A stretch of 36,030 bases of DNA from Candidatus Stahliibacteriota bacterium (GTDB taxonomy: Bacteria > Hydrothermota > Tepidihabitantia > B3-TA06): the NCBI GenBank assembly GCA_030670165.1, contig DAOVCF010000001.1, forward strand, positions 1 through 36,030, written 5' to 3'. The notes beneath the pieces are model-generated. The model did no database searches. It had not been told where the DNA came from and saw only the letters and a program-made list of their open reading frames with translations. Of this stretch, positions 27,552 through 35,720 are shown one piece after another (within the stretch, counting starts at the first letter, position 1; every line of letters starts with the position of its first letter). The translations under genes were made by a program, and so were the position numbers.

Positions 27552-28391
27552 ATGATGGCCATGTCGCTAGGATTGTTCCTTTTGATCATCTTGCTCGCCT
27601 TTGCATGCGAGTTTATCGATGCTTCTGTGGGGATGGGCTACGGAACGATCCTTTCTCCTTTGCTTATAGGAATGGGATTTGATCCTTTGTTCGTTATCCC
27701 TGCACTTCTTCTATCCCAGGCAGTGGGAGGACTTACGGCTTCCCTTTCCCACGCCAGGCTGCGCAACGTCAGCTTCAGTCCACGCTCGAAGGATCTTAAG
27801 ATCTTCCTGATAATCACCGGAGCAGGCATCCTGGTCACCATATTTGCCGCTATCGTAGCCTTAAAGATTCCCAAAGTGGTGCTTTCTACCTATATCGGTG
27901 CACTCGTCCTGGCTATGGGAATCATCATACTCATCAACCTGCGGTTCAGCTTCTCCATTAAGAAAATGGTTGGGGTCGGTATCATAAGCGCCTTTAATAA
28001 GGGGCTGTCAGGCGGCGGTTTCGGGCCGATCGTTACCTCCGGTCAGATCATCTCCGGGCACAAGGCTAAACGTGCCGTGGGTGTAACCACACTCTCCGAG
28101 GCCCCTATCTGCATCACCGGTTTCTTGACATTCCTTATAGGCAAACTGATAATACAGAGTGAAGGATCTTTGCTTTCCCGGCCCGTAGGCGAGATCGCAC
28201 GCACCGTCTTCTTATCCCAGTCCATCCTGCGTTGGGACCTTATGATCGCACTCCTGATAGGTGTCGCCCTTGTCGCTCCCATCGCTCCCCTCTTGACCAA
28301 AAAGATCCACCGCAAACTCTGGAACTACATACTAGGCCCTCTGATTATCCTGCTCGGAGCGTGGGTGCTTATAAAGACCCACCTCCTCTAG
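27552..28391 (+). CDS. TSUP/TauE-SafE family anion (sulfite-type) permease, full length
   Basis: About 8 predicted TM segments. 'ACEFIDASVGMGYGTILSPLLI' fits the TauE/DUF81 N-terminal motif. The start is somewhat uncertain (ATG 27552, 27555 or 27561). Confidence 0.7.
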   Translation: MMAMSLGLFLLIILLAFACEFIDASVGMGYGTILSPLLIGMGFDPLFVIPALLLSQAVGGLTASLSHARLRNVSFSPRSKDLKIFLIITGAGILVTIFAAIVALKIPKVVLSTYIGALVLAMGIIILINLRFSFSIKKMVGVGIISAFNKGLSGGGFGPIVTSGQIISGHKAKRAVGVTTLSEAPICITGFLTFLIGKLIIQSEGSLLSRPVGEIARTVFLSQSILRWDLMIALLIGVALVAPIAPLLTKKIHRKLWNYILGPLIILLGAWVLIKTHLL

Positions 28392-28719
28392 CAGGGTTGC
28401 TAAGCGCCCCAAGATAAACCGCCAAAGGAAGAAGATTGATCTTCGGACCGTCAAGAACTCTCCACTCATTATCTTAACTTCGCGTTGTGTCCCATATGAG
28501 ATTGCTCCCTGCGTTCGCCCTCCGGAGCTCCGTCGCTTCGTTCATCGCAACAACTCACACAACATGCGGTGCGAGTCTTTAGACTCGCTGGTTAACTTTT
28601 TCCTGCGAAGATTGCTTAAAAAACATACGACCTCTTCGTCTAGGAGGGTTGCCAAGCTCTTCGGATCGGATATAGTTGTAATAGAAAACTCTGGTAACCT
28701 CATCAAACCTGGGAGTATC

Positions 28720-29097
28720 ATGAACGTTTGGCAATATCTTTTCGTGGCCGTAGTGGGGGTTGCTTCAGGAATGCTTTCCGGCCTTTTCGGTATAGGGGGC
28801 GGGACGCTGATCATACCGGCTCTGGTTTTCATTCTCGGCTTCACCCAGCACAATGCCCAGGGAACCTCGCTTGTCGCCCTGCTCTTGCCTGTGGGAATCC
28901 TTGGGGTGCTCCGTTACTGGAAAGCAGGTGACGTGAACTGGATAGCCGGCCTGATCATGGCAGGTGGGCTTCTCGTTGGGGCCTACTTCGGCGCAGGCTG
29001 GGCAGGAAAACTGAATGAGGTCTGGCTGAAGCGTGCGTTCGGTATCTTCTTTATCCTTTTGGGAATCAGGTACATACTTACCAGGTCAGCGCCTTAA
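28720..29097 (+). CDS. Half-size (about 4 TM) TSUP/TauE-family membrane protein
   Basis: ATG at 28720 follows GGGAG. 'VASGMLSGLFGIGGGTLIIPALVF..AQGTSL' is the classic TSUP motif, but the protein is only about 125 aa. The longer track ORF (from 28564) adds a non-hydrophobic, RBS-less extension. Confidence 0.7.
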   Translation: MNVWQYLFVAVVGVASGMLSGLFGIGGGTLIIPALVFILGFTQHNAQGTSLVALLLPVGILGVLRYWKAGDVNWIAGLIMAGGLLVGAYFGAGWAGKLNEVWLKRAFGIFFILLGIRYILTRSAP

Positions 29098-31490: not shown

Positions 31491-32585
31491 CTACCCTTTC
31501 TTTCCAGGCTTGCGAGAGTACCTACGAATATAGGCCTCGGTCTTGTGGCGGGCCACGTAGTCCGGGTACTGGATAGGCGGCGACTTGAAGAAGTAGCTTG
31601 ACGGAGCGGTAATAGCACCCTTTAGGCCGTGATTTAAAGCCAGCTTGGCGCACCGGATCGCATCTATCATCACCCCGGCAGAGTTGGGTGAGTCCCAAAC
31701 CTCCAGCTTGAGTTCGAGATTTAAGGGCACGTCACCAAAGGTCTGGCCTTCCATGCGTATGTGACACCACTTTCTGTCTTTGAGCCAGGGCACGTAATCC
31801 GATGGCCCCACGTGAACGTTCTCAGCCCCAATGTCGTAAGGCAGCATTGAGGTCACGGCACGGGTCTTTGAGATCTTTTTGGACTCAAGGCGTTCACGTT
31901 CGAGCATATTGAGAAAATCGGTGTTGCCGCCCACGTTGAGCTGGCTGGTACGTAAAAGTTTTACCCCTCGCTCGTGAAACAGGGTGGTAAGGACACGGTG
32001 AACGATTGTGGCACCCACCTGTGACTTGACATCGTCGCCAAGGACTGGCAGACCCTTTGAGCGGAACCTTCTGGGCCAATAGCCGCCCGAGGCGATAAAA
32101 ACAGGAATCCCGTTCACGAATGCACAGCCTGCATCAAGCGCCTGCTCAACGTACCACTTGGTTGCCTCCTCTGATCCTACGGGAAGGAAGTTGACTACCA
32201 CATCGGTCCTGGTCTCTTTTAAGAGTCGGGGGATGTCCACAGTGTTGCCAGGCGCCTTGGTGATAATCTGTGAAAGATACTTCCCCAGACCATCGTGGAC
32301 CATACCTCTCACTACCCTGACACCCGACTTGGGAACCTTGCAAAACACCTGGGTATTGTTCGGATAGGTATATATCGCCTGCGATAAATCCTTGCCGACC
32401 TTGCGCTTGTCTATGTCTATAGCAAGTGAAAATTCAATGTCCGAAACATGGTAGCCCCCCAGGTTCACGTGCATGAGGCCCGGGATTATCTCACCTTCCT
32501 TCGCGTTGCGGTAGTAATGAACCCCCTGCACCAGTGAACTCGCACAGTTGCCCACCCCGATGATCGCAACCCGAATCTTACTCAT
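31491..32585 (-). CDS. ino1: myo-Inositol-1-phosphate synthase (inositol-3-phosphate synthase, prokaryotic type)
   Basis: '[25 protein letters not shown]' Rossmann start and '[19 protein letters not shown]'. About 364 aa. ATG at 32585 follows AAAGGAG. The track's TTG at 32600 is inside the RBS region. Confidence 0.85.
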
Positions 32586-32618
32586 TGCCACTCCTTTCAA
32601 TTATGACTAGAGAATGTA

Positions 32619-32646
32619 AGTTTATAAATTAGCGCGCCTATGTCAA
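32619..32646 (-). promoter_or_regulatory. Candidate promoter of the inositol-phosphate synthase gene
   Basis: On the minus strand: TTGACA (32646-32641), 16 nt spacer, TAAACT (32624-32619). Confidence 0.4.
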
Positions 32647-32703
32647 GGCCAGCTGGAGTACTCCAGAGAGAACACCAGCAATCAGTTATCCAAGCCTGAA
32701 GCA

Positions 32704-34086
32704 TCACCTTCTCCTGCCACGAACGAGAATCCAAAACACCGCCAGATGTGAGATTAACCCTACACCCAGCATCGCAAAGAAGGGCTGACCAACAACGGCC
32801 CCGAGGAAGATGACAAAGAGTCGGAGGTCCCTCTTGGCAAGCCTTGGCAGAAACCGGCTAGGGGATGGTTTCTGAAACCGAAGCTGGTACTCCTTCTTAG
32901 AATAGCTTGCCAATAGGAAGCCGGATAGTGCGCCGATCCCGGCCAACCATACCCAGAACTCGGGATGAGTAAGCCAGAATCCATAGGTGACGCCTGCTGC
33001 AATGGAAAGATCGGCATACCGGTCGAGGATCGTATCAAAAAAAGCCCCGAAGCGGCTACCGAGAGCTTTAAGTCGAGCGATCTCACCGTCGCAGCCGTCG
33101 ATTATCGAGGAGACCTGAATCAAGACCCCGGCAAATAGCACCGGAAGATAACCTTGGCGCGTAAAGAGCCAGGCTCCCAGGAGGGCGATAGCGAAGGAGA
33201 CGACGGTAATGGTGTTTGGGGTAACCGGGGTGTGAGCGAGTAACCGCGAGAGGCGGATTGAAAGAGGGCGGTTGAGATAGCGGGCGATGAAGCCGTCCTC
33301 ACTTGGTTTGTCAACTTGCTCCGCAAGGCGACGTTTCGCCTCCCTTAAACTCCGGGGGGTATCAACGTCGAGCCAAAAGCGCTTGCCGATATCATACGTC
33401 CTCATGCGCCCCTCGGCGGCCAGCTCGGCGATCCCGTCGGAGAGTTCATACCTGCCCTTGGCTTGGACCCTGGCCAGCGGCGCAAAGATCGCAGGGGTAA
33501 GAAGAAAGATACCCGTATCTATCCCGTCGTATCTTGTTAAGTCCTTTCCTATAGCCCTGATGCGGCCCGATTGAGTGGAAACCTTGGTCGCACCTCGAAG
33601 ATCGAAGACCCGCTCGGTCCGCCTGTCTATCGCCAGAAAGCAGGAATCGTCCTCGGACCCCACACGCAAGAGTCCTGCAAGCAGCCCCGGCTCAAACAGA
33701 TGGTCGCCCATCACGAGCACAAACGGCTCGGTGAGTTTGCCGCGACAGGCAAGCAGTGAGGTTCCGTTTCCCTTTTCCCAGTCCGGGTTTTCGACCACCT
33801 CAATCCGAACCGATCTCTTTCTCGCCAGCCGCGTCAGAAAGGACCGCATCGGCTTGGGTTTGTAGCCGGTTACCACGATGAAGTCGGAGAGTCCTGCCAC
33901 CTTGCATGACAGGACTACGCGTTCCAGTAGCGGCAACCCGAGGACCCTGCGCATCGGTTTCAACTCATTCTTTCTCTCTCGTAGCCGACTTCCCCTACCG
34001 GCAGCGAGGATGACTACCTTCCTGACCGTAAGCCTTTGCCGGCTACCCCTGTTCTTGCCGCTTTCTATCACATCCGCAACCCACAT
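32704..34086 (-). CDS. Fused CTP:inositol-1-phosphate cytidylyltransferase / CDP-alcohol phosphatidyltransferase (IPCT/DIPPS-like)
   Basis: N-terminal nucleotidyltransferase 'VVILAAGRGSRL'. The C-terminal membrane domain has an intact CDP-alcohol motif 'DGCDGEIARLKALGSRFGAFFDTILD' (DxxDGxxAR-x8-G-x3-D-x3-D). Confidence 0.8.
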   Translation of the reverse strand: MWVADVIESGKNRGSRQRLTVRKVVILAAGRGSRLRERKNELKPMRRVLGLPLLERVVLSCKVAGLSDFIVVTGYKPKPMRSFLTRLARKRSVRIEVVENPDWEKGNGTSLLACRGKLTEPFVLVMGDHLFEPGLLAGLLRVGSEDDSCFLAIDRRTERVFDLRGATKVSTQSGRIRAIGKDLTRYDGIDTGIFLLTPAIFAPLARVQAKGRYELSDGIAELAAEGRMRTYDIGKRFWLDVDTPRSLREAKRRLAEQVDKPSEDGFIARYLNRPLSIRLSRLLAHTPVTPNTITVVSFAIALLGAWLFTRQGYLPVLFAGVLIQVSSIIDGCDGEIARLKALGSRFGAFFDTILDRYADLSIAAGVTYGFWLTHPEFWVWLAGIGALSGFLLASYSKKEYQLRFQKPSPSRFLPRLAKRDLRLFVIFLGAVVGQPFFAMLGVGLISHLAVFWILVRGRRR

Positions 34087-34181
34087 CTCGTGATTACAAA
34101 GGGAATCTTACCCATCGCAACTTCCTTTCGTTGAGATCGAGATCTCTATAAAAAGGGGATCTGCCTGATGCTATCTAAAGC

Positions 34182-34209
34182 ATTCTATGCCACTGAGGGG
34201 GAATGTCAA
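34182..34209 (-). promoter_or_regulatory. sigma70-type promoter of the IPCT/DIPPS-like gene
   Basis: On the minus strand: TTGACA (34209-34204), 16 nt spacer, TAGAAT (34187-34182). Confidence 0.45.
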
Positions 34210-34356
34210 GGGCGAAGGTAAGTCCAAGAGGACCGTTCAATGCAAATTTACTCCGCAGGCGTCGTCCTCCGGTCAAATATCAAAATGCAAAATGGATGAG
34301 AGCAGGAGGACCGCGACAATGAATTTTGATTTTTGCAATGAACCCGTCTCCGGGTC

Positions 34357-34383
34357 TTGACAAACCTTAGACATGGGTATACT
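34357..34383 (+). promoter_or_regulatory. Candidate promoter of the tandem beta-rich protein genes
   Basis: TTGACA 34357-34362, 15 nt spacer, TATACT 34378-34383. The track ORF 'start' at 34357 is the TTG of this box. Confidence 0.35.
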
Positions 34384-34404
34384 TTCTTGTGGAAAGGAGG
34401 ATTG

Positions 34405-35076
34405 ATGAAGCTGAATAAACGAATCGCGTCAATTCTTAGAATAAGTGCGTGTGTTACGGGTATTATATGTGTTGCGGGTGTTACGGGTGTTGTGTGTGTT
34501 ACGGGTACGGGCTGCGTGGCTCCGTTCTACGGCACGGCAAGGATAGAGCCGGGGTTTCATGTCAATGCCGGTGTTGGCGTAGGGCAGTTCATAGGTGGCT
34601 CTTACGAGGCAACGAGTCGTTATATCGGTCCCCGTGCTGATGTTGAGGTAGGATATGCATTCAGCCACTTTTTTAAGACCCACCTAAGGGCAGGTGGAGG
34701 CTGGGGATGGAGATCGGAAGAATACGTGGAAGGCGAAAGCCCTTCTCGTCCAGAGGCGACTCTTCTGGACGGAGCCATAGGAATCCAGGTCTCCTCCCCC
34801 CATCATTACCCCACTCCTGCCCTGCGCCTGGAGGTAGGACTGGGAGGAGTGAGCACGGATCTGATGTTCGGGATAGGGGAACCCGAATGGCTCACCCTGG
34901 GCACTCGCGTATACTTCTTCAAGGAAGAGCTGGCACAATTTTACCTGCCGGTTGCTCCGTTTATAGGGATACATCCTTTACCCCACCTTTCGATTTTTGC
35001 TTCGCCGGGGACGTTTGCCTTTTACGAAGACTACAAGCCGCTCTTCTCTGTAGGCGTAGGCTACAAACTTAAGTAG
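34405..35076 (+). CDS. Uncharacterised secreted/outer-membrane beta-rich protein, paralog 1, with a Cys/Val/Thr/Gly-repeat N-terminus
   Basis: ATG at 34405 follows AAAGGAGG. The N-terminus is 'ISACVTGIICVAGVTGVVCVTGTGC'. The body is Gly/aromatic alternating, and the C-terminus 'HPLPHLSIFASPGT..FSVGVGYKLK' is shared with the next gene. Confidence 0.55.
   Translation: MKLNKRIASILRISACVTGIICVAGVTGVVCVTGTGCVAPFYGTARIEPGFHVNAGVGVGQFIGGSYEATSRYIGPRADVEVGYAFSHFFKTHLRAGGGWGWRSEEYVEGESPSRPEATLLDGAIGIQVSSPHHYPTPALRLEVGLGGVSTDLMFGIGEPEWLTLGTRVYFFKEELAQFYLPVAPFIGIHPLPHLSIFASPGTFAFYEDYKPLFSVGVGYKLK
34451..34512 (+). repeat. In-frame tandem repeat GTGTT(A/G)CGGGT (4 copies) plus a (TG)n run
   Basis: Copies start at 34451, 34469, 34478 and 34496, with spacings of 18, 9 and 18 nt. 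A TGTGTGTG run lies at about 34491-34498. Confidence 0.85.
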
Positions 35077-35090
35077 AAAAGGAAGATAAA

Positions 35091-35720
35091 ATGAAGGTAG
35101 TTAATTGGATCGTTATACTTCTGCTTCCTACAGGACTCATAGCCTTCCTGCCACAGACCTTTCAAACCGCGGAGGTTGAAGGCGGCTCGACCTCGTTGAC
35201 CGCGAGCACTATGGGCGAATATTTCAACTACGGGTTTATGGGTTGGTACGTTGAGGGAACGGGGGTAAGATCACAAATATCGTGTCATTATACGTTCGGT
35301 AAGGCAGCTCCTCTAATTGTGTTCGGGTATGCCGGTATGTTAGTCAATCAAAGTGACTTAGGGTTGTTTGATTGGGGCGATGATCCAAAAATCTCATTCT
35401 GGCCTTCAGGCGGAATCGGAGTACAGGCGGAGTTAGTGGAAAAACCCTCCCTAGCGCTTCAGTTTTCAACCGAGTTCCCCACCTTGCTTTCTTTAACGTT
35501 TCTTGCCGGGATCAACTCACGCCAGATCAACCGCGAGATAGTAACCATCGGCATCAAGACCACTCCGGGCCCAGTAGATTTTCTGCCTATTATCCCTTCC
35601 TCGGTCTTTATAACAGTACACCCCACGCCAAGACTTCACATTCTTGCAGGGGGAACAACCCTTTGGATGGTAGGCGGAGAGGTGCACGCCGGAGTGGGTT
35701 ACACAATCTTAAATAAATGA
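35091..35720 (+). CDS. Uncharacterised secreted/outer-membrane beta-rich protein, paralog 2
   Basis: AAGGAAG RBS. N-terminal hydrophobic 'WIVILLLPTGLIAFL'. C-terminal 'HPTPRLHILAGGTT..HAGVGYTILNK' aligns with paralog 1. Confidence 0.55.
   Translation: MKVVNWIVILLLPTGLIAFLPQTFQTAEVEGGSTSLTASTMGEYFNYGFMGWYVEGTGVRSQISCHYTFGKAAPLIVFGYAGMLVNQSDLGLFDWGDDPKISFWPSGGIGVQAELVEKPSLALQFSTEFPTLLSLTFLAGINSRQINREIVTIGIKTTPGPVDFLPIIPSSVFITVHPTPRLHILAGGTTLWMVGGEVHAGVGYTILNK

Follow-up and report, generated by a model that had tools for sequence, protein, structure and literature searches.

A fused IPCT/DIPPS-type enzyme encoded beside myo-inositol-1-phosphate synthase in a WOR-3 genome probably serves a CDP-inositol-dependent solute pathway

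The window analysed here is a 36,030-nucleotide stretch from the metagenome-assembled genome of an uncultured WOR-3 bacterium ('Ca. Stahlbacteria'), which is 93.7% complete. Translation of its open reading frames placed two adjacent genes on the minus strand, at 32704..34086 and 31491..32600, where the first-pass annotation had put them. The former, starting from an ATG at 34086, encodes a 460-residue protein in which an IPCT-type cytidylyltransferase is fused to a DIPPS-type CDP-alcohol phosphotransferase, as assigned from Pfam, NCBIfam, PDB, AF2 and Foldseek comparisons. An identical protein is also encoded on one contig from run SRR26080963. The latter encodes a myo-inositol-1-phosphate (inositol-3-phosphate) synthase, MIPS. 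A gap of 118 nt separates the fusion stop from the likely MIPS ATG, and this gene order is conserved in congeners. Two sigma-70-like promoters, both consensus matches only, lie on the minus strand upstream of the fusion gene (TTGACA-16-TAGAAT, 34182..34209) and within the intergenic gap (TTGACA-16-TAAACT, 32619..32646).

The MIPS reading frame yields 369 residues if counted from the TTG at 32600. The likelier start, judging by the GGAG ahead of it, is the ATG at 32585, which gives a 364-residue protein (31491..32585, minus strand). It matches PF01658 in Pfam with 128.7 bits and TIGR03450 with 515.8 bits, the latter below the cut-off of 638 of this narrow model; the prokaryotic MIPS proposed beside the fusion, on the same strand, is thus confirmed. 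MIPS was found in all 26 related genomes at 69–98% identity over full-length matches, and its dN/dS against congeners is 0.06–0.07.

The fusion has a much patchier distribution. Within this WOR-3 class it occurs in 11 of 26 genomes, and one congener does not carry it; MIPS and a PIP-synthase-like gene are present in 26 of 26. In sister genera, the order PAPS reductase-TauE-S41-tmk-MIPS is kept without the fusion, and in one of them (L224) a yraN-like gene directly adjoins MIPS. Given this order and the distribution of the fusion, a genus-only block of about 3.1 kb (32704..35720) was delimited, flanked by the ancestral MIPS on one side and the yraN-like gene on the other. It comprises the fusion and two hypothetical genes on the plus strand (34357-35076 and 35091-35720). 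The fusion thus appears from gene order to be an accessory gene inserted in this genus beside a class-wide core MIPS, which otherwise most likely feeds the PIP-synthase-like lipid enzyme. Since the fusion is an add-on to universal MIPS and PIPS-like genes, the solute branch (or another branch from CDP-inositol) would be all that sets sister genera apart, and the class offers a clean natural comparison. In at least four species of the genus, the reading frame of the fusion is uninterrupted and evolves under purifying selection; its dN/dS against congeners is 0.21–0.28.

Pfam assigned NTP_transf_3 to residues 24-158 of the fusion and CDP-OH_P_transf to residues 289-395. The IPCT-like domain spans residues ~23-258 (33313..34020, minus strand), with the loop ILAAGRGSRL at residues 26-35 (33982-34011, minus strand). 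By sequence it matches the IPCT structures 2xme (92.9 bits) and 4jd0 (64.5 bits), and Foldseek superimposed it on both with TMt values of 0.83–0.88. A sugar-1-phosphate nucleotidyltransferase was considered for this domain and rejected, as MurU, RmlA and GlmU all give much lower scores than the IPCT structures.

The membrane CDP-alcohol phosphotransferase domain occupies residues 262-460 (32707..33303, minus strand), as defined by PDB matches, secondary structure of the AF2 model and conserved residues. Its catalytic motif, D330xxD333G334xxA337R338-x8-G347xxxD351xxxD355 (33022..33099, minus strand), is fully intact, as first read from the sequence, and the motif positions are invariant in alignments of 54 and 144 sequences. 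In the AF2 model of the fusion (pLDDT 88.8), six long helices and a juxtamembrane one make up this domain, without any additional helix at the C-terminus, an architecture that has been ascribed to family members with soluble acceptors (PMC4634129). The model NF041135 matches the fusion from end to end with 285 bits, below the cut-off of 580 of this Thermococcales-specific model. Among PDB entries, 4MND is the top match both by sequence (E 2.4e-54, 188 bits) and by Foldseek (TM 0.74/0.83 over 444 columns). The identification of the fusion as an IPCT/DIPPS architecture is therefore borne out: the N-terminal domain groups with the solved IPCTs, and the C-terminal domain groups with DIPPS and AF2299, neither with PIP synthases nor with a BEPIS-like lipid transferase.

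Homologues came from two scans of the GTDB representative genomes, each guided by a profile, and all counts refer to the loci listed. In the resulting tree, the fusion falls in a large clade, S, which is sister to clade T with the characterised enzymes. The characterised anchors in this tree are the Archaeoglobus and Aquifex lineages only, with partial A. fulgidus sequences taken from PDB alignments; the enzymes of Thermotoga, Rubrobacter and Thermococcales lie outside it, probably because the DGCDGE pattern of the scans and their limit of 80 loci worked in favour of other lineages. The subclade of the window protein within S is strongly supported (100/99), whereas the S/T split has moderate support (UFBoot 65, SH-aLRT 86). 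Clade S comes mostly from sediment and other non-thermophile-type lineages, including Thaumarchaeota, Zixibacteria, Planctomycetota, Desulfobacterales and Latescibacterota. Given its placement in clade S and its score below the NF041135 cut-off, the fusion is not a same-clade orthologue of a biochemically characterised member. A single position in the whole protein separates the two clades. MIPS is adjacent in 43 of the 94 clade S loci and in 26 of the 49 clade T loci.

Of the positions conserved at ≥92% in clade T (the clade with AF0263 and Aquifex-lineage homologues), the fusion retains 60 of 64, namely 28/28 in the transferase domain and 32/36 in the IPCT domain. The four changes are A24V, L45M, L61C and E165G. 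An acidic residue (Glu or Asp) occupies position 165 in 140 of 144 homologues, as part of the motif '[DE]ATK'; the variant 'RGATK' was found in the window protein (Gly165 codon at 33592..33594, minus strand) and in one sister species. As read from this alignment, Gly165 could weaken or alter substrate binding by the IPCT domain. The two species sharing it differ at synonymous sites with a dS of 0.31.

The classical pathway ends with a phosphatase. In about 40 of the 94 clade S loci listed, a phosphatase either neighbours the fusion or is joined to it: a DUF4202/HD gene directly downstream in 29, an adjacent IMPase gene in nine and a fused HAD domain in two. One example of a DUF4202/HD neighbour in a relative is L059:7323-7994. 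Five of the IMPase-adjacent cases (L003, L004, L046, L056 and L087) belong to the window protein's own well-supported subclade, and its closest relatives possess MIPS-IMPase-fusion sets resembling the classical DIP gene set. Such partners imply that the acceptor carries a phosphate, in agreement with a product that is itself phosphorylated, for example DIPP. A Pfam search of the larger open reading frames confirmed the early observation that the window has no phosphatase gene. The first-pass annotation had further suggested that an IMPase-family phosphatase be sought elsewhere in the genome; however, PF00459 found none in the host genome or in five other genomes of the genus, while detecting the family in 14 of 14 control genomes, and a custom IMPase HMM had no match in the host genome. 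Queries of the DUF4202/HD type and of the fused HAD type (L076) likewise retrieved no homologue from the host genome. The generic phosphatase candidates there are a single PgpA-family gene (G000:C85:6527-6943) and a single HAD_2 gene (G000:C189:7945-8433). With a whole genus lacking a detectable IMPase, the final step of the pathway appears to be filled differently by lineage, by IMPase, DUF4202/HD, a fused HAD domain or another enzyme.

These data enable us to propose a putative pathway. Initially, MIPS would convert glucose-6-phosphate to L-myo-inositol-1-phosphate, which the cytosolic N-terminal domain of the fusion would couple with CTP to yield CDP-inositol. CDP-inositol would then act as donor for the six-helix membrane domain, which would pass its inositol phosphate on; the accepting hydroxyl would belong to a soluble alcohol that already carries a phosphate, most probably another inositol-1-phosphate, and the product would be di-myo-inositol-phosphate phosphate (DIPP). 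Finally, a non-IMPase phosphatase, perhaps the PgpA-family or the HAD_2 protein, would convert DIPP to the compatible solute DIP. The physiological role would be osmo- or stress protection rather than protection specifically from heat. We assign a probability of roughly 60% to the reading that the gene pair is an IPCT/DIPPS-type CDP-inositol pathway that most likely leads to DIPP/DIP or a close phosphodiester solute. It is favoured because NF041135 matches over the full length, 4MND is best by both sequence and fold, nearly all clade T residues are kept, including every one in the transferase domain, the six helices without a C-terminal extension are the soluble-acceptor architecture, MIPS linkage recurs across clades S and T, and the gene is under purifying selection. 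Counted against it are the moderate support of the S/T split, a C-terminal domain nearer to AF2299 (45% identity) than to AF0263 (34%), the host genome without a match to IMPase, DUF4202/HD or the L076-type HAD, and Gly165 at a near-universally acidic position before 'ATK'. In addition, we know of no clade S member that has been characterised biochemically, which also weighs against this reading.

A somewhat unlikely alternative is that the clade S enzymes, including that of the window, make another inositol phosphodiester and not DIP, either of glycerophosphoinositol type or with an unphosphorylated acceptor. In the IMPase-free genus, a non-canonical phosphatase (PgpA/HAD) would then serve, or none would be needed, and the Gly165/Arg164 swap could mark an altered substrate. 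A related version, in which CDP-inositol is made and the inositol phosphate is passed to another soluble acceptor such as glycerol phosphate to yield a glycero-phospho-inositol-type or mixed phosphodiester solute, seems unlikely. The proximity to AF2299 extends from this C-terminal domain to the whole of clade S, and the donor pocket of AF2299 accommodated the glycerol moiety of CDP-glycerol (PMC4634129). Moreover, the host genome has a second, split pair of cytidylyltransferase and CDP-alcohol transferase genes beside a glycerol-1-phosphate-dehydrogenase-like gene, so that glycerol-phosphate chemistry is plausibly at hand, and the phosphatase partners of the relatives fit any phosphorylated acceptor. 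However, the complete set of DIPPS-clade transferase residues, the single position separating the clades and the classical-looking gene sets of the closest relatives all count against this version, as does the different N-terminal domain of AF2299 (PF21682).

The first-pass annotation had left the use of CDP-inositol divided between DIP and an inositol-containing lipid or glycan; of these, a DIP-type solute is favoured. That CDP-inositol would supply the head group of a membrane lipid or of a glycan of the envelope, in a Kennedy-like manner as with Rhodothermus marinus BEPIS and the proposed Bacteroides vulgatus cluster, is decidedly unlikely. Some bacteria are known to make lipids in a CDP-inositol-dependent way (Jorge et al. 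2015, summarised in PMC4587543), and this has been proposed in a further case (PMC9246714). Also in line with it, the fusion genes of the Latescibacterota sister subclade lie among LPG-synthase-like, MlaC and OEP genes, and an unphosphorylated acceptor would readily account for a genus free of any pathway phosphatase. Yet the host genome encodes a separate PIPS/AIPS-like protein (G000:C111:4611-5228), and the same kind of gene is present in 26 of 26 relatives, so the fusion is not needed for inositol lipids. A PIP or archaetidylinositol-phosphate synthase, typically a stand-alone protein of about 200 residues, does not itself fit the fusion, which scores 88 bits against NF040950 and 58 bits against NF045883, compared with 285 against NF041135, and 39.9 bits against the PIP synthase 5d92, compared with 188 against 4MND. 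BEPIS-type similarity was equally lacking: the window's C-terminal domain, with its six helices only, shares 32% identity over 88 residues, at a tree path distance above 6, with a stand-alone 311-residue transferase with a C-terminal extension, used as proxy for genuine R. marinus BEPIS and taken from a CAPT-MIPS-IPCT cluster in the 3.4-Mb, 64%-GC genome of a Rhodothermus-like Bacteroidota. Least probable is that the fusion arrived by horizontal transfer as an accessory gene and, with its IPCT half impaired in this species by the lost acidic residue, contributes little or nothing, as its patchy spread and a dN/dS 3–4 times that of MIPS might suggest, given that the intact frame is under purifying selection, the Gly variant has persisted across two diverged species and all catalytic residues are present.

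DIP has been used as a chemical marker of high-temperature life. The first-pass annotation had held DIP to be almost confined to (hyper)thermophiles and had read DIP synthesis by this gene pair as a sign of thermophilic or hydrothermal life. Neither claim held: the former is outdated at the gene level, and against the latter stand the spread of clade S over non-thermophile-type lineages, the host rRNA and tRNA composition, and the transcription of published homologues at temperatures near 2 °C (PMC7265257). In the host, the 16S rRNA (56.5% GC) and tRNAs (60% GC) look mesophile-like, which led us to reject a hyperthermophilic host. The IVYWREL index of a crude ORF set disagrees with these values and points to about 62 °C; moderate thermophily is possible. 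As the pair is widespread in non-thermophiles, finding these genes is no evidence of thermophily, and WOR-3 joins a long list of apparently non-hyperthermophilic carriers.

Compared with known systems, the fusion resembles A. fulgidus AF0263 (4MND; IPCT domain 2XME; NF041135) in domain order, fold, nucleotide loop, CDP-alcohol motif and link to MIPS. It differs in sharing only about 30–34% identity, in belonging to the sister clade, and in two residues, Trp103 and Gly165, which are Pro and Glu in the thermophile clade. Of the DIP gene set (MIPS, IPCT/DIPPS and IMPase), the host has the linked MIPS, whereas no IMPase was found in its genome. The closest solved membrane domain is that of A. fulgidus AF2299 (4O6M/4O6N/4Q7C), a six-helix, dimer-type CDP-alcohol phosphotransferase sharing 148 bits over 188 residues, which does not process lipids (PMC4634129). 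AF2299 has another, shorter N-terminal domain (as assigned in the A. veneficus orthologue), whereas in the window protein the IPCT domain is complete and MIPS is encoded next to it. The MIPS-IPCT-BEPIS operon of R. marinus and the 'alternative inositol lipid cluster' of B. vulgatus/Prevotella (PMC4587543, PMC9246714) also combine MIPS and an IPCT-type enzyme to give CDP-inositol, followed by a CDP-alcohol-family transferase; but those systems use separate genes and a longer, very distant transferase that acts on a lipid, while that of the window is fused and DIPPS-like.

The same fused architecture occurs in the cold deep sea, in hadal MGI Thaumarchaeota (PMC7265257) and hydrate-sediment Atribacteria (bioRxiv 10.1101/536078), with DIP as the proposed product, serving as osmolyte or piezolyte. 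The MGI Thaumarchaeota loci L058, L065 and L089 fall in clade S together with the window protein; they belong to another phylum, and the thaumarchaeal island has an extra IMPase, whereas none was found in the WOR-3 genus. To our knowledge, none of these cold deep-sea homologues has been tested biochemically. The fusion of the window is thus an ordinary further member of the known IPCT/DIPPS family, from a large non-thermophile clade in which the assay of one member would annotate hundreds of species.

[quoted passage not shown] Since GGAG precedes the ATG at 32585, MIPS more likely starts there, with 364 residues; it scores 128.7 bits against PF01658 and 515.8 bits against TIGR03450. Fusion residues 23-256 match the Pfam families NTP_transf_3/NTP_transferase and include the loop ILAAGRGSRL (residues 26-35); residues 289-395 match CDP-OH_P_transf, and the motif D330xxD333G334xxA337R338-x8-G347xxxD351xxxD355 is complete. 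Several public gene calls of this protein cluster have 410 or 416 residues, fitting a start at Met45 that would remove the conserved NTP-binding loop (window 33955-34086). The 460-residue fusion from the ATG at 34086, behind a promoter-like site, is the consistent reading. A sigma-70-like promoter match (consensus match only) precedes each of fusion, MIPS and tmk, no terminator-like site was found in the gaps between them, and co-transcription of the three genes is possible.

Sequence and fold comparisons revealed that the fusion is built like the A. fulgidus IPCT/DIPPS (AF0263), as the first-pass annotation had proposed. The full-length structure of that enzyme, 4MND, is the best match among solved structures (E 2.4e-54) and ranked first in a search with the AlphaFold2 model of the fusion (pLDDT 88.8, pTM 0.82, 54 homologues as input), with TM 0.74/0.83 over 444 columns, followed by the A. 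fulgidus CDP-alcohol phosphotransferase AF2299 and two IPCT structures. The NCBIfam model of the Thermococcales bifunctional IPCT/DIPPS is matched end to end (residues 23-455 against model positions 2-414 of 419) with 285 bits, below the 580-bit cut-off of this narrow model. In the N-terminal domain, the IPCT structures of A. fulgidus (2xme, 92.9 bits) and T. maritima (4jd0, 64.5 bits) outscore every sugar-1-phosphate nucleotidyltransferase, the best of which reaches 42.7 bits, which speaks against this domain being one of the latter enzymes. The membrane domain is likewise matched far better by DIPPS and AF2299 than by PIP synthases (39.9 bits at most). A juxtamembrane helix and six long ones make up this domain, which extends to residue 460; in this family, the six-helix form has been ascribed to enzymes that use soluble acceptors, and additional helices at the C-terminus to enzymes that act on lipids (PMC4634129).

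The family proved to be very large: two profile-guided scans of one-genome-per-species collections yielded more than 540 confirmed relatives of the fusion, those among the matches listed including Archaeoglobus, Aquificota, Thermoplasmatota, MGI Thaumarchaeota, ANME, Zixibacteria, Latescibacterota, Planctomycetota, Desulfobacterales, Nitrospirota, Acidobacteriota, Chloroflexota and others. In a tree of 144 distinct fusions, two clades were seen. Clade T (50 rows) holds Archaeoglobus including AF0263, the Aquifex lineage including one sequence labelled A. aeolicus, Hydrothermarchaeota, Thermoplasmatota and other Aquificota; clade S (94 rows), to which the window belongs, consists largely of lineages known to live in sediments or in other settings that are moderate or cold. 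The trees were built without the Thermotoga, Rubrobacter and Thermococcales enzymes and genuine BEPIS, the CDP-inositol-using lipid transferase of Rhodothermus marinus. A more careful analysis, of 83 rows, gives strong support to the window's subclade (11 rows, 100/99; 13 rows, 99/96) and only moderate support to the T/S split (UFBoot 65, SH-aLRT 86), with one branch appearing in 63% of bootstrap trees. Loci of 89% identity that keep the order fusion-MIPS-tmk-S41 protease occur in MAGs labelled candidate division WOR-3 or Candidatus Stahlbacteria; the nearest relatives outside WOR-3 among the matches listed, at about 50% identity, are from Caldilineae, Acidobacteriota, Planctomycetota, Thermoanaerobaculales and Hadesarchaea. 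Across WOR-3 genomes there are at least three unrelated versions of the fusion, namely the window type, one grouping with the Aquifex lineage in clade T (locus L136) and one elsewhere in clade S (L085), a distribution that points to repeated horizontal acquisition.

Of the 64 alignment positions with conservation of 92% or more in clade T, the fusion keeps 60, and none of the 28 that lie in the transferase domain is changed. Over the whole protein, residue 103 is the sole position conserved differently between the clades (Trp in S, Pro in T). Just before 'ATK', clade T has Glu and clade S has Asp, and 140 of 144 sequences have an acidic residue there. RmlA-type enzymes make an E-K contact to the sugar phosphate, and by analogy this residue probably contacts the inositol phosphate. 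At this site the window and one sister species carry Gly165 ('DLRGATKV'), and two other species of the genus read 'DLGDATKV'. Despite Gly165, the fusion is under purifying selection, with dN/dS of 0.21-0.28 (MIPS, 0.06-0.07).

It is chiefly gene neighbourhoods, counted over deduplicated loci, that argue for DIPPS-like chemistry in clade S, and they do so indirectly. In clade S, a bacterial-type MIPS is adjacent in 43 of 94 loci, the fusion is immediately followed by a DUF4202/HD-domain gene (about 190 residues; e.g. L059:7323-7994) in 29, and an IMPase is adjacent in nine. Five of these IMPase cases fall in the window's own subclade (L003, L004, L046, L056 and L087), with MIPS also inside the cluster in L056 and L087. 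Two further loci encode IPCT-DIPPS-HAD triple fusions with a C-terminal HAD phosphatase, of 686 residues in Ca. Scalindua sediminis (L057:2786-4846) and 781 residues in a Latescibacterota MAG (L076:5914-8259). The 49 clade-T loci include 26 with adjacent MIPS, and none has the DUF4202/HD gene downstream of the fusion or any adjacent phosphatase. Thus some phosphatase, from one of three unrelated families, is present in about 40 of the 94 clade-S loci. This would be expected if the transferase product carries a removable phosphate, as in di-myo-inositol-phosphate phosphate (DIPP), and not if inositol phosphate goes onto an unphosphorylated lipid alcohol. The DUF4202/HD protein is a candidate non-IMPase DIPP phosphatase.

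In the window, a Pfam scan of the larger ORFs found no phosphatase gene, in agreement with the first-pass annotation. The genome-wide IMPase search that it had suggested was also negative: the window's own genome (1.80 Mb, 203 contigs, 93.7% complete) yielded no homologue of IMPase (PF00459), DUF4202 or the partner phosphatases, the only generic phosphatase candidates found being one PgpA-family and one HAD_2 gene. IMPase is missing from all six genomes of the genus and was found in 14 of 14 control genomes.

All 26 genomes of the class carry both MIPS, as full-length matches of 69-98% identity, and a protein resembling PIP/archaetidylinositol-phosphate synthases, here of 205 residues (G000:C111:4611-5228; NF040950, 122 bits, below cut-off; BT1523-type, 106 bits), which together suggest inositol phospholipids as a class-wide trait of these WOR-3 bacteria. 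The fusion occurs in 11 of the 26 and, within its family, only in this genus. In sister genera, where the fusion is lacking, the order is PAPS reductase-TauE-S41-tmk-MIPS, and in one relative (L224) MIPS directly adjoins a yraN-like gene. The gene order therefore marks a segment of about 3.1 kb, comprising the fusion and two hypothetical genes, as an insertion between MIPS and the yraN-like gene. MIPS would be a core gene feeding the phospholipid route across the class, and the fusion an accessory branch using the same inositol phosphate. The co-inserted hypothetical genes (34357-35076 and 35091-35720) are ORFs without Pfam match, with signal-peptide-like N-termini and weak mutual likeness; congeners hold diverged copies. 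Adjoining the full-length TauE gene (27552-28391), a TauE/SafE ORF of 177 residues (28564-29097) covers profile positions 126-236, the C-terminal half only; the ORF is a truncated paralogue or, alternatively, its start is mis-set.

A second, split cytidylyltransferase and CDP-alcohol transferase system is encoded in this genome (G000:C88:9554-13342; locus L096 covers the transferase), in the order GT4 glycosyltransferase, 224-residue CDP-alcohol transferase, 264-residue NTP transferase, Fe-ADH_2 and archaeal-type FBP aldolase/phosphatase. Its transferase has the variant motif DxxDGxxAK and is kept in congeners at 224-225 residues; the Fe-ADH_2 protein is glycerol-1-phosphate-dehydrogenase-like. 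The system may represent a CDP-glycerol-type pathway.

For the fusion itself, a less likely alternative is a soluble acceptor other than inositol phosphate, such as glycerol phosphate. The transferase domain of the fusion is 45% identical to AF2299 against 34% to AF0263, a trend seen across clade S. Domain trees, with weak support, place AF2299 and its A. veneficus orthologue inside clade S or close to it. Lipids are not processed by AF2299, whose donor pocket held the glycerol moiety of CDP-glycerol (PMC4634129). CDP-inositol-dependent lipid synthesis, known from the MIPS-IPCT-BEPIS route of Rhodothermus marinus (PMC4587543) and proposed for Bacteroides/Prevotella (PMC9246714), is disfavoured, because the 311-residue Bacteroidota transferase is very distant from the window's domain in the tree and 32% identical over 88 residues. 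IPCT-like genes occur in 38 of 301 Bacteroidota genomes, mostly stand-alone behind a eukaryote-type MIPS; two of 12 extended loci (L210, L213) hold the transferase upstream of MIPS and IPCT, one in a 3.4-Mb genome with 64% GC at the locus. Nine others (L211, L212, L214-L219, L221) have a MIPS of about 440 residues and then an IPCT of about 245, with no CDP-alcohol transferase within 8 kb and conserved neighbours of about 350 and 390 residues instead. In a long-branched Latescibacterota subclade (L061, L070, L077, L081, L086), drawn towards the BEPIS-like outgroup in the domain tree, fusions of 488-532 residues neighbour LPG-synthase-like, MlaC and outer-membrane efflux (OEP) genes; this sister group may have moved towards a function in lipids or the envelope.

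As one of two readings of the gene pair, the first-pass annotation had offered DIP synthesis and with it a thermophilic or hydrothermal lifestyle; that lifestyle is not borne out. The 16S rRNA gene (56.5% GC) and 41 tRNAs (60% GC on average) are mesophile-like; IVYWREL, a crude proteome index, disagrees (0.423, predicting about 62 °C). The host is not a hyperthermophile, and moderate thermophily is possible. Fused IPCT/DIPPS genes have been reported from Atribacteria of hydrate sediments (bioRxiv 10.1101/536078). Others have been described in hadal MGI Thaumarchaeota, with transcription at about 2 °C (PMC7265257). The latter sequences fall in clade S together with the window, and therefore the genes say nothing on temperature.

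In summary, the points of modest interest are the genus-wide absence of IMPase, the insertion beside a MIPS gene that is core to the class, the variant residue Gly165 and, to our knowledge, the absence of any assayed enzyme from clade S. A limited search of the WOR-3 literature found no mention of inositol. The fusion-MIPS pair adds a member to an already known enzyme family.
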